Of a DNA stretch of 4,771 bases, positions 1 through 4,771 are shown piece by piece. This stretch comes from a virus (Duplodnaviria > Heunggongvirae > Uroviricota > Caudoviricetes), in the IMG/VR virus record IMGVR_UViG_2778261502_000006, one strand, 5' to 3'. The position numbers and the translations under genes are program-made. Within the stretch, counting starts at the first letter, position 1. Every line of letters starts with the position of its first letter. The notes under the pieces are model-generated. The model saw nothing but the letters and a program-made list of their open reading frames with translations, was not told the DNA's origin and did no database searches.

Positions 1-315
1 TTATACACTTTGCTGTGGGATTTTCACGATTGAGGTACCATCAAATCGCCAGGTTAAATCAGCGTCAAAACCAGCAGGTAAAGCTTCAACTTCAGTCACT
101 GACATATCAACCGGGTACAGCATTGATACATCCTTTGCGCACGAACAAATAATACCGTCATCCCCATATACAATTTTCCAGGTATCTTCTCTGAATAACT
201 TTTGTGATTCGTACCAGTCATTGCCTTCATCATCACGAAGGTAAATGACTCCTGAAATGTATGTTTCTGGTGTGTAACGAGTCAGATTTTTTAACGTCAG
301 CATTTTGTTATCCAT
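1..315 (-). CDS. Tail-fibre assembly protein (Tfa; Mu U / P2 G family), N-terminal domain only, about 104 aa. Start ambiguous: ATG 313-315, TTG 316-318 or ATG 301-303.
   Basis: Minus-strand ORF ending TAA at 1-3. The segment DEGNDWYESQKLFREDTWKIVYGDDGIICSCAKDVSMLYPVDMSVTEVEALP matches the N-terminal signature I recall for Mu U / P2 G (EDGKNWYEE..PDT.K.VYD...I.....DVS..NP.....VEV). Its start overlaps the stop of an upstream tail-fibre-like frame (ATGGATAA), the usual stf-tfa coupling. The conserved C-terminal Tfa domain is absent. No clear SD. Confidence 0.6.
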   Translation of the reverse strand: MDNKMLTLKNLTRYTPETYISGVIYLRDDEGNDWYESQKLFREDTWKIVYGDDGIICSCAKDVSMLYPVDMSVTEVEALPAGFDADLTWRFDGTSIVKIPQQSV

Positions 316-544
316 CAATTGTTACCCAATTGCCATTCAGTCTCACCTGCATCGGCGCCACGCGTATTGCTGAAATTGTGATGTAGGTATCATTACTCAG
401 ATTGGTTAGCCCACACAGGAATGAACCACCAGGGGCGTCATAAGATTTTGACTCTCCACCACTACCACCTGGTGTTGCAATGGATGTGATAGCACCGCGC
501 CGGAACCCGCTAGGGTTACAGGTGGTTGTGGAACTGGTCGATAG
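308..544 (-). pseudogene. 3' remnant of a side tail-fibre (stf-like) gene: 78 sense codons with no start codon, ending TAA 308-310.
   Basis: Minus-strand frame is open from 544 to 311, bounded upstream by TGA (545-547). Translation is Gly/Ser/Thr-rich (...NPSGFRRGAITSIATPGGSGGESKSYDAPGGSF...NGNWVTIDG*) and ends 5 nt inside the tfa start, as tail-fibre genes do. The upstream body of the gene is missing. The tail-fibre call rests on position and composition only. Confidence 0.35.
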
Positions 545-663: not shown

Positions 664-921
664 TTAAAGTTGACTATTGTTGTTAGCGGAAGGTATGCCG
701 TCATTTTTGTTCGGATAAATATCAGGTCGTAATTGATGGGGAGTTACTACCCATCCGCCCCATTGGCAGAGTTGAATAACTCTTTCAGAAGGTACTCGGT
801 TCTTTGCAATCCAGTTCGCAACAGATTGAACTGATTGGAATTCAAACCGCCTTGATACCTCTGAAATCGACCCGATCGCCTTCACAGCTTTAGCTGTTAC
901 ATTCTTGTGTTGAGATGACAT
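664..921 (-). CDS. cro: Cro-like DNA-binding repressor (Cro/YdaS-type HTH), 85 aa.
   Basis: ATG 919-921 is preceded by AGGAGA with a 5-nt spacer (reverse complement of 926-931); stop TAA 664-666. The segment FQSVQSVANWIAKNRVPSERVIQLCQWGGWVVTPHQLRPDIYP resembles the Cro/YdaS helix-turn-helix pattern (...S.W....RVP.ER...I...TGG.VT..ELRPD). It is divergent from the CI-like gene. The track ORF 664..978 adds an N-terminal extension with no RBS. Confidence 0.75.
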   Translation of the reverse strand: MSSQHKNVTAKAVKAIGSISEVSRRFEFQSVQSVANWIAKNRVPSERVIQLCQWGGWVVTPHQLRPDIYPNKNDGIPSANNNSQL

Positions 922-1026
922 GTGTTCTCCTATGACTAAGCCTGCATCAATACTACTTATGGTAGCAATTATTAGCAACTTAAAATAGAAATGACAACTA
1001 TGCCTTGTGCGCTTAATCTTCTACTT
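922..1026. promoter_or_regulatory. Divergent cro / cI promoter-operator region.
   Basis: Intergenic between divergent repressor genes. CTAC-N5-GTAG dyad CTACTTATGGTAG at 953-965 and related CTACTTATGGTGG at 1021-1033. A -10-like TAAAAT at 981-986 sits just upstream of ATG 991 on the plus strand. A -35-like TTGTCA lies on the minus strand (reverse complement of 992-997). Promoter assignments are by eye. Confidence 0.5.
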
Positions 1027-1710
1027 ATGGTGGAAAATGCTAAATACAAAGACTTTGCCGAAAGGCTAAACAGGTCTCTCCAAGAGCAATCTATTGGAGT
1101 TAAAGAATTGTCAGAGTTCAGTGGTGTCTCGTATGAGATGGCGCGGCGCTACACTCTTGGTACTGCAAAGCCGAGAGATGAGAAGATGATTCGAATTGCA
1201 GAAAGACTTGCCGTCTCACCGGCTTATCTTGATTATGGTGTGCCTGTTAATGGTGGCGACGCGCCAGCCAAAGGCACGGTCAGAATAGAGCAATTGGATG
1301 TTCATGCTTCAGCCGGTTCCGGATATATAAACCAACCATTCCCTACAATAGTGAGCTCAATAGAGATTCCAGAAGAGAGGATCTTCGAGTTGTTTGGTCG
1401 TAGAAGCCTTGATGGCATCGTCATGATAAATGTTGATGGCGATAGCATGATGCCCACGCTTTGCCCAAAGGACCTGCTTTTCATAGACAGCAAGGTTGAA
1501 CAATTCAGCGGCGACGGCGTTTATGTGTTCAATTTTGAAGACAGTACGTTCGTTAAACGTTTGCAGAAGGTAAAAGGGCGTCGACTGGCAGTTCTTTCAG
1601 ACAATGAACATTACCCGCCCTTCTTCATAGAGGAGCATGAAATGAATGAACTATACATATTCGGCAAGCTAATCAGATGCTTACCTCTAAAAATGATAGA
1701 GTTTGGCTAA
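991..1710 (+). CDS. cI: CI-like prophage repressor: N-terminal HTH plus C-terminal S24 (LexA-like) autopeptidase domain; 239 aa, or 227 aa if it starts at ATG 1027.
   Basis: Full-length ORF with stop TAA 1708-1710. HTH-like region (SIGVKELSEFSGVSYEMARRYTLG). S24 signature with nucleophile Ser in GDSM (VDGDSMMPT) and general-base Lys in FVKRL. Candidate Ala-Gly cleavage site in HASAGSG. No SD before ATG 991, so possibly leaderless like lambda cI. Confidence 0.9.
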   Translation: MTTMPCALNLLLMVENAKYKDFAERLNRSLQEQSIGVKELSEFSGVSYEMARRYTLGTAKPRDEKMIRIAERLAVSPAYLDYGVPVNGGDAPAKGTVRIEQLDVHASAGSGYINQPFPTIVSSIEIPEERIFELFGRRSLDGIVMINVDGDSMMPTLCPKDLLFIDSKVEQFSGDGVYVFNFEDSTFVKRLQKVKGRRLAVLSDNEHYPPFFIEEHEMNELYIFGKLIRCLPLKMIEFG

Positions 1711-2635: not shown

Positions 2636-2703
2636 GAAAGCGCACTCCTTTACTTACCAGTTATGGGTGACAGGTGTGAAACAGGTGGAGTGCGCTTCCA
2701 GTT

Positions 2704-2780
<77 letters not shown>

Positions 2781-2832
2781 GAATCACGTAGTTCTCGTGA
2801 TCCAAGGAAGTAAGAAAGCTGTGTGGAGTCTT

Positions 2833-2878
2833 GGCGGTACCAGTACCAACCTTTGAAGTCCCTGGTACCGCCCTTTTT
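2833..2878 (+). terminator. Rho-independent terminator downstream of the tRNA.
   Basis: Perfect 11-bp inverted repeat GGCGGTACCAG (2833-2843) / CTGGTACCGCC (2862-2872) with an 18-nt loop, followed by CTTTTT (2873-2878). The long loop is atypical. Confidence 0.55.
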
Positions 2879-2963
2879 ACTCAACTGAAAGCGCGTTCTG
2901 TCCCTTGTCATTAAGTGCCAGTTCGTTAAATCCAAAACCAGCGGAACGCGCTTTCAATTGAGT
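2879..2963. repeat. Long inverted repeat: 20-bp arms with one mismatch, 45-bp spacer.
   Basis: Arm 2879-2898 (ACTCAACTGAAAGCGCGTTC) pairs with 2944-2963 (GAACGCGCTTTCAATTGAGT); the single mismatch is C2885 against T2957. It lies immediately after the terminator T-run and is not followed by a T-run itself. Confidence 0.6.
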
Positions 2964-3124
2964 GGAGAAACTAACCGGCGATTGCAGTCGCCCGTTTCAC
3001 TAAGTGCCTCTTCATGGGGCATTTACTGAAACGAAACCCAAACTTTTATTCGCCTTTTGGCGAGGGATTCGTGCAACCAAAATTCAGCGCCGTGCAGGGC
3101 GCATATAACACGGAGAAACTAACC

Positions 3125-3289
3125 ATGACGACCACACAGAACGTCACTGAGTTACAACCACGTATGACCAGAGAGCAACTGATCGATGCAGCTCGTAAAG
3201 CGGCCCCTCTTCTTCCGGTTGCTTACCGCGGGATCATGACAGAACTGGCTACGCCGACTGAAAGCCGATGTAGCATGGTGGAAATCTGA
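3125..3289 (+). CDS. Hypothetical small protein, 54 aa (track ORF 3014..3289 has an unsupported N-terminal extension).
   Basis: ATG 3125 is preceded by GGAG (3112-3115) with a 9-nt spacer. Product MTTTQNVTELQPRMTREQLIDAARKAAPLLPVAYRGIMTELATPTESRCSMVEI. Its 3' end overlaps a second open frame (from 3240). Confidence 0.4.
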   Translation: MTTTQNVTELQPRMTREQLIDAARKAAPLLPVAYRGIMTELATPTESRCSMVEI

Positions 3290-3533: not shown

Positions 3534-3761
3534 ATGAGCGGACAAATCCAACGTTTTCTTACTCCTGATGACCTCTATCAATTAACTGGTTATCGTCGAC
3601 CTTCCCTACAGTGTAAGGCTCTGAGGGATAGTGGAGTTTTTTTTATCCCACGTAAGGACGGCAGACCTGGAACTACATGGGATCATGTATCAAACCCGGT
3701 TGGCCTTAAGTTGATAGTGAGCAATCCAGAGGAAGAAGAACCAAACTTTAAGGATATGTAA
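3534..3761 (+). CDS. xis: Excisionase (lambda Xis-like), 75 aa.
   Basis: ATG 3534 is preceded by GGAGA (3522-3526) with a 7-nt spacer. Stop TAA 3759-3761 overlaps the int ATG (TAATG), as in lambda xis-int. Similarity to lambda Xis is by remembered pattern (RRPRSL...PP.KDGR against RRPSLQ...IPRKDGRP). Confidence 0.7.
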   Translation: MSGQIQRFLTPDDLYQLTGYRRPSLQCKALRDSGVFFIPRKDGRPGTTWDHVSNPVGLKLIVSNPEEEEPNFKDM

Positions 3762-4771
3762 TGTCTAGAGCTCGCAAAAACCCTGATGATAACTGGATGC
3801 CTCCCCGCGTTCGCCGGGGAAAATCTGCTTATGAGTTTCGTACCACAGATGGTCGTACCATCAGGTTGTGCAATCCTGAGCTAACAAAATCGCAGGTATG
3901 GGCAGCTTACGAAAACTTCATAAACGATTTAAAGGTTGGTACGAACTTCAACGCACTTTGTGAAGAGTTCTTTAATTCCGGTGATTTCCACGAGTTAGCA
4001 ACTGAAACACGTAAAGACTACAGAAAATACGGTTCAAAGGTAAATGTTGTCTTCGGGAAAATGAAGCCGGATAACATCAAGCCAGAGCACATCAGAAAAT
4101 ACATGGATAAACGAGGTGTTAAGAGCAGAGTTCAGGCAAACCGCGAGAAAGCATTTATGTCCAGGGTGTTTCGGTGGGCATACGAACGAGGAAAGGTGAA
4201 GATGAATCCTTGCCAGGGCGTTAAGCAATTTAAAGAGCAGGCTCGAACCCGTTATATTAGCGATAGAGAATATGATGCACTTTATAGCGTAGCTTCTGTT
4301 CCAGTAAAAGTTGCAATGGAATTGGCATATCTATGTTGCGCCCGCCAGGGAGACATTCTTGACCTCAAAAAGAGTCAAATATTGAGCGAAGGAATTTTAA
4401 TTCAGCAGAGTAAAACCGCAGTTAGCCAGATCAAGGCCTGGACAAAACGTCTGGAGGATGCCGTTAATCTTGCTGACAGCATTCCTCTTAATAGCGGGAT
4501 GGTAAGTATTTTTGTCATCCACCAGCCATCAGGTCTGCGATACACACGCGATGCTTTTAATGCGCAATGGATGAAGACTAAAAAAATTGCTGCTGAAAAA
4601 TATCCAGACCTCGATTTCCAGTTCACTTTCCATGATCTAAAAGCCAAAGGAATTTCTGATCTTGAAGGTACGCTTAGTGAGAAGCAGGAAATTTCAGGTC
4701 ATAAAAACGCCTCGCAAACAGCGAGATATAACCGAAGAATTTCAGTTGTTCCGGTCGTCGGGGGGCAGTAA
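3761..4771 (+). CDS. int: Tyrosine recombinase / lambda-family phage integrase, 336 aa.
   Basis: Full ORF with stop TAA 4769-4771; AAGGA SD 6 nt upstream. Arm-binding-like basic N-terminus. Catalytic-domain blocks align with lambda Int: LAMELAYLCCARQGDIL (box I Arg), IQQSKTAV (Lys), FTFHDLKAKG (box II His), GHKNASQTARYNRR (His and nucleophile Tyr). Confidence 0.95.
   Translation: MSRARKNPDDNWMPPRVRRGKSAYEFRTTDGRTIRLCNPELTKSQVWAAYENFINDLKVGTNFNALCEEFFNSGDFHELATETRKDYRKYGSKVNVVFGKMKPDNIKPEHIRKYMDKRGVKSRVQANREKAFMSRVFRWAYERGKVKMNPCQGVKQFKEQARTRYISDREYDALYSVASVPVKVAMELAYLCCARQGDILDLKKSQILSEGILIQQSKTAVSQIKAWTKRLEDAVNLADSIPLNSGMVSIFVIHQPSGLRYTRDAFNAQWMKTKKIAAEKYPDLDFQFTFHDLKAKGISDLEGTLSEKQEISGHKNASQTARYNRRISVVPVVGGQ

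Follow-up and report, generated by a model that had tools for sequence, protein, structure and literature searches.

The integrase gene at the end of the 4,771-nucleotide stretch of viral DNA analyzed here (the window) encodes a lambda-type tyrosine recombinase that has a lysine, Lys294, at the position of the second catalytic arginine (Arg II). Very probably this is an intact, competent integrase from a lambdoid prophage related to phage mEp390, in which the lysine is a conserved ancestral state and not a lesion, and the remnant condition of the element that carries it is an unrelated matter.

Lysine is the normal state in the clade to which this integrase belongs, which includes the integrases of phages that complete a temperate life cycle. 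The lesson for annotation is that lysine in place of the second arginine in the R-H-R-Y tetrad is not, on its own, sufficient ground for calling a tyrosine integrase dead or a prophage immobilized. There is nothing new here for recombinase chemistry, since lysine at this position is already on record (0.5% of the family), its effect was examined earlier in Cre, Flp, and TopIB, and a natural integrase is known to work with it. What is added is that the natural lysine variants found group into a single large and coherent clade, made up of phage integrases of enterobacteria, and that the lysine tracks a changed box I motif, an association that could be used in a mutagenesis study.

The integrase and its active site

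The int product is assigned to the phage integrases by several profiles: Pfam PF00589 (Phage_integrase; 32.8 bits versus a gathering score of 27.1, over integrase residues 176–325), PF22022 (the phage-integrase central domain; 31.4 versus a cut-off of 27), and PHROG 1 ("integrase"; E 5e-48). NCBIfam offered no specific family for the protein, its sole match being a sub-threshold one to XerA. The translation of the int open reading frame (ORF) includes DLDFQFTFHDLKAKGISD; its sequence at box II is FTFHDLKAKGISD, and the protein also contains FQFTFHDLKAKGISD.

The structure prediction that the first-pass annotation of this DNA had proposed as a check returned a lambda Int fold. With the family alignment as input, the AF2 model has a mean pLDDT of 94, and its top Foldseek match is lambda Int (1z19; target-normalised TM 0.81, rmsd 2.9 Å), followed, after the lambda Int chains, by Tn1549 Int, XerA, IntI4, XerH, and Cre. 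In the model, the predicted arm-binding domain comprises strands at residues 17–19, 24–27, and 33–37 and then a helix at 43–58; the family profile aligns with lambda Int from residue 1 of each. The three-domain architecture and fold are those of lambda Int (1Z1B, 1Z1G, 1Z19, 1P7D), although the two proteins share only 16–18% identity. The adjacent xis product matches Pfam PF13986 (E 3.6e-14) and PHROG 1266 ("excisionase"; E 1.5e-29); its family (DUF4224) is not that of the lambda excisionase. The xis-int gene pair is common to mEp390, Fostie, and BUCT708.

The first-pass annotation had set the box II lysine against the Arg II of lambda by eye, and three independent alignments place it there (Table 1). 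A phmmer search against the lambda Int chains in PDB (1p7d, 1z1b, 1z19) sets tfhdlkak over TFHELRSL, ungapped, at E ~1e-7. An HMM built from 56 family members, aligned one-to-one with lambda Int, covers residues 1–344 at E 1.8e-39 with Lys294 opposite Arg311, and the same 56-member profile recovers lambda Int residues 1–344 from PDB at E 1.3e-34. MAFFT alignments with lambda Int likewise put Lys294 in the Arg311 column; by all three routes the stretch from His291 to Lys294 is ungapped. A profile alignment had been suggested as a further check, and in the one with the family HMM the residue at the box II position is Lys, not Arg. The interval originally given for the feature, 4615–4640, is on the right feature but begins some 8–10 nt early and ends on the first base of the Lys codon.

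Table 1. Positions in the window of int, its active-site codons, and the neighboring features discussed in the text
Feature	Position	Strand	Description
int	3761-4771	+	336-aa lambda-type tyrosine integrase; N-terminal arm-binding, core-binding, and catalytic domains; last ORF of the window
Box I, C192-C193-A194-R195-Q196-G197-D198	4334-4354	+	Cys192 in place of the usual Thr of T-G-x-R
Arg195 codon (Arg I)	4343-4345	+	Lambda Int R212
Asp198 codon	4352-4354	+	Lambda Int D215
Lys218 codon	4412-4414	+	Lambda Int K235, the general-acid Lys on the beta2-beta3 hairpin
Box II, T-F-H-D-L-K-A-K	4625-4648	+	From the sequence and alignments to lambda Int H308/R311
His291 codon (His II), cat	4631-4633	+	Lambda Int H308
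Lys294 codon, AAA	4640-4642	+	Arg II position, lambda Int Arg311
His314 codon (His III)	4700-4702	+	Lambda Int H333
Tyr323 codon	4727-4729	+	Lambda Int Y342, the nucleophile
xis	3534-3761	+	75-aa DUF4224 excisionase; stop codon overlaps the int start codon
Tail-fibre assembly gene fragment	1-318	-	N-terminal 105 codons; PHROG 136 positions 1-105 of 178
ORF shortened by deletion junction 2	3014-3289		PHROG 14171 positions 5-76 of 151

The box I Arg, the catalytic Lys, both His residues, and the Tyr had also been reported as present, and each aligns with its counterpart in lambda Int (R212, K235, H308, H333, and Y342), as does Asp198 with D215. Arg195 and Asp198 are invariant in one alignment (A1), and Lys218, which sits in the turn between the predicted hairpin strands 211–215 and 222–226 of the AF2 model, is invariant in two (A1 and A3). 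Of the catalytic pentad and nucleophile, therefore, Arg I, Lys, His II, His III, and Tyr are all found, and Lys294 stands where the H-x-x-R motif has Arg II. The integrase nevertheless stays in the tyrosine recombinase family, because that family is defined by fold, profile, and nucleophile. Apart from the replacement of Arg311 by Lys294, the active-site region differs from that of lambda Int in box I, where T-G-Q-R is replaced by C-C-A-R. The active site, as read from the sequence, is R-K-H-K-H plus Tyr, with Lys294 at the Arg II position.

One way to avoid this assignment would be to suppose that Lys294 is not the counterpart of Arg II at all and that an arginine from elsewhere in the fold enters the active site. 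A displaced arginine does serve as Arg I in IntDOT, of the CTnDOT subgroup (PMC8138268), and a screen for conserved Arg or Lys residues specific to the lysine clade returned two positions in the catalytic domain (Arg230 and Lys308) and two in the core-binding domain (Arg112 and Arg143). Lambda Int also has Lys at the position matching Lys308. Arg230, a conserved, clade-specific residue of the catalytic domain (Arg in 84% of the Lys group versus 15% of the Arg group), is in favor of such a relocation. The CTnDOT precedent, however, concerns Arg I and not Arg II; the H-x-x-K spacing equals that of H-x-x-R, ungapped and on a helix (residues 291–300) that is predicted with high confidence in the AF2 model; and lysine is a conservative replacement known to work at the Arg II position. 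We give a relocated arginine scarcely any credence, and take Lys294 to be the occupant of the Arg II position in what follows.

Lysine at the Arg II position across the clade

Two sets of homologues were used to follow the Arg II column. The first consists of the 120 matches listed from a search of 5.8 billion proteins, which are 63–98% identical to the integrase and come from many genera of Enterobacterales; all 120 of these nearest homologues among the matches listed have HDLK. The second comes from cluster representatives at 50% identity, searched exhaustively with HMMER, among which 3,734 relatives were found. The best 150 of these were examined, and 124 of them are full length and 31–62% identical to the integrase. 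Among these 124 full-length representatives from the best 150 of 3,734, the Arg II column holds Lys in 95, Arg in 26, and another residue or a gap in three. The catalytic Lys and the Tyr are essentially invariant in this set, as is Arg I: Lys218 is matched by Lys in 124 of 124, and Tyr323 by Tyr in 122, the other two having a gap.

In a rough neighbor-joining tree rooted on lambda Int, Arg is placed at the root and two changes suffice to account for the distribution. On this tree, Lys arose in a single gain basal to a clade that numbers about 100 representatives, and the second change accounts for a small Arg group nested inside that clade. As judged from the alignments and this tree, Lys294 is a lineage trait, the ancestral and maintained state of a large integrase clade of the Enterobacterales and related proteobacteria.

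The clade includes the integrases of known phages. The motif [F/C]TFHDLKAKG[I/V]S occurs in mEp390, Fostie, ZF40, ST64B, 606R7, and BUCT708, and the corresponding proteins are 86% (mEp390), 66% (Escherichia phage Fostie), 59% (Pectobacterium phage ZF40), and 46% (Salmonella phage ST64B) identical to the integrase studied here; that of Escherichia phage 606R7 is also of the Lys type. Four of these Lys-type phages, mEp390, Fostie, ZF40, and BUCT708, were recovered as virions or by induction: Fostie from water sediment, Stenotrophomonas phage BUCT708 from sewage, and ZF40, according to its record, from an "induced lysogen". The nearest relative is the integrase of mEp390 (AFM76123.1, JQ182729), whose 86% identity extends over 336 residues and which has the identical FTFHDLKAKGISD motif; it differs at 46 amino acids, none of them an active-site residue. 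The integrases of ST64B (Sb28) and ZF40 (gp02) share the [C/F]TFHDLKAKG[I/V]S motif and belong to inducible prophages, but they use other attachment sites and their arm-binding regions are more divergent. ST64B itself has been described as cryptic. Its excision has been quantified by attP qPCR in work that did not separate the share of its own integrase (PMC12455584), and its reintegration was credited partly to a second, host-encoded integrase (PMC12455584).

More distant phage integrases, those of KL3, F10, LESphi2, PHB09, and Xfas53 (27–30% identity), have Arg at the Arg II position. Four of these Arg-type relatives, KL3, F10, LESphi2, and Xfas53 (L008, L009, L010, and L012), read F-R-D-[LI]-R at box II, so that Arg II is kept and His II is replaced by Arg; the pentad thus varies at further positions in the wider group.

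The lysine is encoded by both of its codons: the window, mEp390, and Fostie have AAA, and ZF40, ST64B, 606R7, and BUCT708 have AAG. The codons adjoining Lys294 likewise differ synonymously among relatives. Comparison of int with two close E. coli prophage integrases, one of which belongs to a seemingly complete prophage of 43 kb that occupies the same site, gave dN/dS values of 0.034 and 0.12 (Nei-Gojobori); values are given for these two only, because dS is saturated in comparisons with mEp390 and Fostie. Judging by these ratios, int is under purifying selection.

The first-pass annotation had suggested that the integrase may be impaired by the lysine. In its full form this reading holds that Lys294 is disabling, so that the integrase is dead or nearly dead and its failure contributed to an immobilized, domesticated remnant. 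The element is indeed a deletion remnant without replication, lysis, or morphogenesis genes, and in a tabulation of over 12,000 tyrosine recombinases (Gibb et al. 2010; PMC2943603) Arg II is Arg in 99.1% and Lys in 0.5%. A disabling substitution is nonetheless hard to reconcile with fixation of Lys across a deep clade, in all of the near homologues listed and about three-quarters of the full-length representatives among the best 150 of 3,734, with the use of both synonymous codons, and with the low dN/dS. It is equally at odds with the occurrence of Lys in phages isolated as particles or induced, with the identical protein in larger prophages, and with the experimental tolerance of Arg-to-Lys changes at Arg II. 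We regard a disabling Lys294 as very improbable. The annotation had offered the opposite possibility as well, a natural active variant, and this is where the evidence leads: clade-wide conservation, inducible and isolated phages, purifying selection, and published Lys variants all support it. The integrase is most likely catalytically competent, as the lifestyle of the related phages, the anatomy of the att sites, and the selection on int suggest.

A competent enzyme might still differ from the Arg type. Across the sequences compared, the residues at positions 192 and 294 are C/K in 85, T/R in 25, T/K in two, and C/R in none, and position 192 is the column most strongly associated with position 294. 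The nested Arg group inside the Lys clade again has T-G in box I. It could be proposed that members of the Lys clade are active with a shifted balance of cleavage and ligation, for which Cys192, the lost box I Gly, and Arg230 or Lys308 compensate or which they exploit. This would fit the covariation, the regained T-G, the enrichment of Arg230, and the ligation defect of the corresponding Cre mutant. The association, however, spans only about two evolutionary transitions and so may be plain shared ancestry, and we consider a shifted balance unlikely. A related idea is that the Lys-bearing integrases represent a distinct active-site solution, in which Lys co-evolved with the change of box I Thr-Gly to Cys-Cys/Ala and with Arg230, offsetting or using the ligation defect. 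We put this forward only tentatively, as a fairly unlikely reading; if it were true, the Lys clade would be a natural experiment on the role of Arg II in leaving-group activation.

Lysine and catalysis in other recombinases

A natural active Lys variant is already known from the literature (PMC2943603, PMC4381057, PMC12884075), and the effect of the substitution has been followed in laboratory mutants. [quoted passage not shown] The ligation defect of Cre R292K implies that Lys is not a neutral swap in every scaffold. In these two mutants and in Flp R308K, Lys replaces Arg at the catalytic position that Lys294 occupies, but they are laboratory derivatives of Arg-type enzymes with a ligation defect, whereas the lysine of the present integrase is natural and long conserved, possibly together with compensating changes.

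A 2026 study described two natural integrases in which the second arginine is a lysine (PMC12884075). One, Pal_Y-Int_1, integrated in 18.7% of plasmid-receiving cells (PMC12884075); the other, Pal_Y-Int_2, gave no recombinants, the cause of which was not established by the authors (PMC12884075). Pal_Y-Int_1, a Pseudomonas integrase from the "Integrase-On-Demand" study, resembles our integrase by description, as a natural tyrosine integrase with lysine for the second arginine; it differs in host and is classed as Y-BPP1Arm. The family-wide analysis of Smyshlyaev et al. (2021), apart from the displaced arginine of the CTnDOT subgroup, describes the pentad as strictly preserved and leaves the Lys clade unmentioned, and our literature search found no account under R311K, box II lysine replacement, or R-H-K-Y.

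By analogy with the Cre vanadate structure and with TopIB, the ammonium group of Lys294 would bring positive charge and donate a single hydrogen bond to one of the non-bridging oxygens of the scissile phosphate, less effectively than the bidentate arginine, which also contacts the Tyr oxygen; the lysine would probably support that oxygen more weakly than Arg does. The charge and the hydrogen bond could nevertheless suffice for an enzyme of the Lys type to cleave, exchange, and religate strands.

A deletion remnant and its attachment sites

The window is identical to L015:6241–11011 (GCA_002233275.1) and L018:1322–6092 and represents the integrase-proximal 4.77 kb of an approximately 10-kb deletion derivative of a lambdoid prophage. 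In L015 the element (L015:1072–11224) has yecA on one side and, on the other, the leuZ-cysT-glyW tRNA cluster that lies upstream of pgsA and uvrC. Compared with larger versions of the element, it has two deletions, and both junctions fall within the window. At the first (window ~516/517), a fragment of a tail-fibre assembly gene is joined to a truncated ymfL-like ORF. At the second (window ~3250–3259), about 2.8 kb of early genes are gone, approximately 10 bp are shared at the junction, and an ORF has been shortened (Table 1). The mEp390 genome, with a DUF4224 excisionase directly upstream of int as in the window, is that of a complete 40-kb lambdoid phage, whereas the window is part of a deletion remnant.

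Larger relatives of the element occupy the same site or carry the same protein. E. coli 2017C-4173W12 (NZ_CP030768) has at this site the apparently complete 43-kb lambdoid prophage mentioned above, with head, tail, lysis, replication, immunity, and early genes and an integrase of ~97% nucleotide identity. The exact 336-aa integrase protein is found on 20 contigs, in larger prophages (among them those of L013, L014, and L020) and remnants alike. Different deletion variants are seen in other strains; L019, for example, is without the immunity region and has kept xis and int. The proposal in the first-pass annotation of a domesticated or immobilized remnant was right in that the element is a prophage deletion remnant, but its connection with Lys294 is not supported: because the same integrase protein sits in much larger prophages, remnant status and Lys294 are unrelated.

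Both ends of the element are intact. In L015 they are marked by a 126-bp imperfect direct repeat, 94% identical between its copies (~1199–1324 and 11071–11194, both outside the window), which adjoin yecA and the 3' side of int and form the attL/attR repeat. The repeat takes in the terminator of leuZ together with the 3' half of the tRNA, and identity stops at the anticodon loop. In the mEp390 attP, this leuZ 3' segment is again present and the right arm is the one seen in the attR of the element; this attP is equal to the left (int-side) arm of attL plus the right (far) arm of attR, a composition that is the signature of Campbell integration. These relationships provide sequence-level evidence that the insertion was catalyzed by an integrase of the Lys type. 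The prophage would insert into the 3' half of leuZ, which encodes tRNA-Leu(UAA), with the crossover probably near the anticodon loop, so that the target is a tRNA gene, unlike the gal-bio attB of lambda.

The leuZ copy beside int (L015:11138–11224) has a phage-type T-stem, and the displaced copy (L015:~1260–1324) one of the bacterial type. What sets them apart is a compensatory pair: GAGTGGG...CCCACAC on the int side versus GAGCGGG...CCCGCAC in the displaced copy. Since leuZ has been rebuilt with a phage-derived 3' half, a lysogen would express a slightly different tRNA-Leu.

On L013, L014, and L020, int is followed by frv/rha genes (frvX) and not by leuZ-cysT-glyW. The switch occurs about 190 nt after the int stop codon (~11200), past the anticodon stem of the phage-type leuZ half. 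A second attachment site was considered for these three and rejected, in that leuZ bases are retained beyond the attP/attB identity block before the sequences diverge. A break beyond attP/attB identity points to a later rearrangement inside leuZ and not to an Int crossover; the junction looks like a chromosomal rearrangement that destroyed leuZ.

Several other genes of the element can be recognized. A divergent immunity pair consists of a YdaS/Cro-like helix-turn-helix (HTH) protein (664–978, minus strand) and a CI-like repressor (991–1710, plus strand) of 239 aa that combines an HTH_3 domain with a self-cleavage domain of the S24 (LexA) type. The segment at 517–1920 matches, at 99.6–99.7% identity, a prophage segment present in E. 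coli Nissle 1917 and in numerous further strains, and this near-identity shows the mosaic make-up of the element. A phage-borne tRNA-Arg gene (anticodon UCU; 2704–2780, plus strand) is located between the immunity region and the block of early genes; Salmonella phages SPN1S, SPN9TCW, and SPC32H have a tRNA-Arg ~93% identical to it. A 93-codon ORF (2654–2935, minus strand) that overlaps the tRNA-Arg gene of the window looks spurious. At the far end of the remnant, L015:1511–5885 encodes a family-2 glycosyltransferase, a small EamA-like membrane protein, and a 612-aa protein, together probably an O-antigen modification module. The far end also keeps dinI-like and umuD-like genes, and the cargo there could explain why the remnant has been retained.
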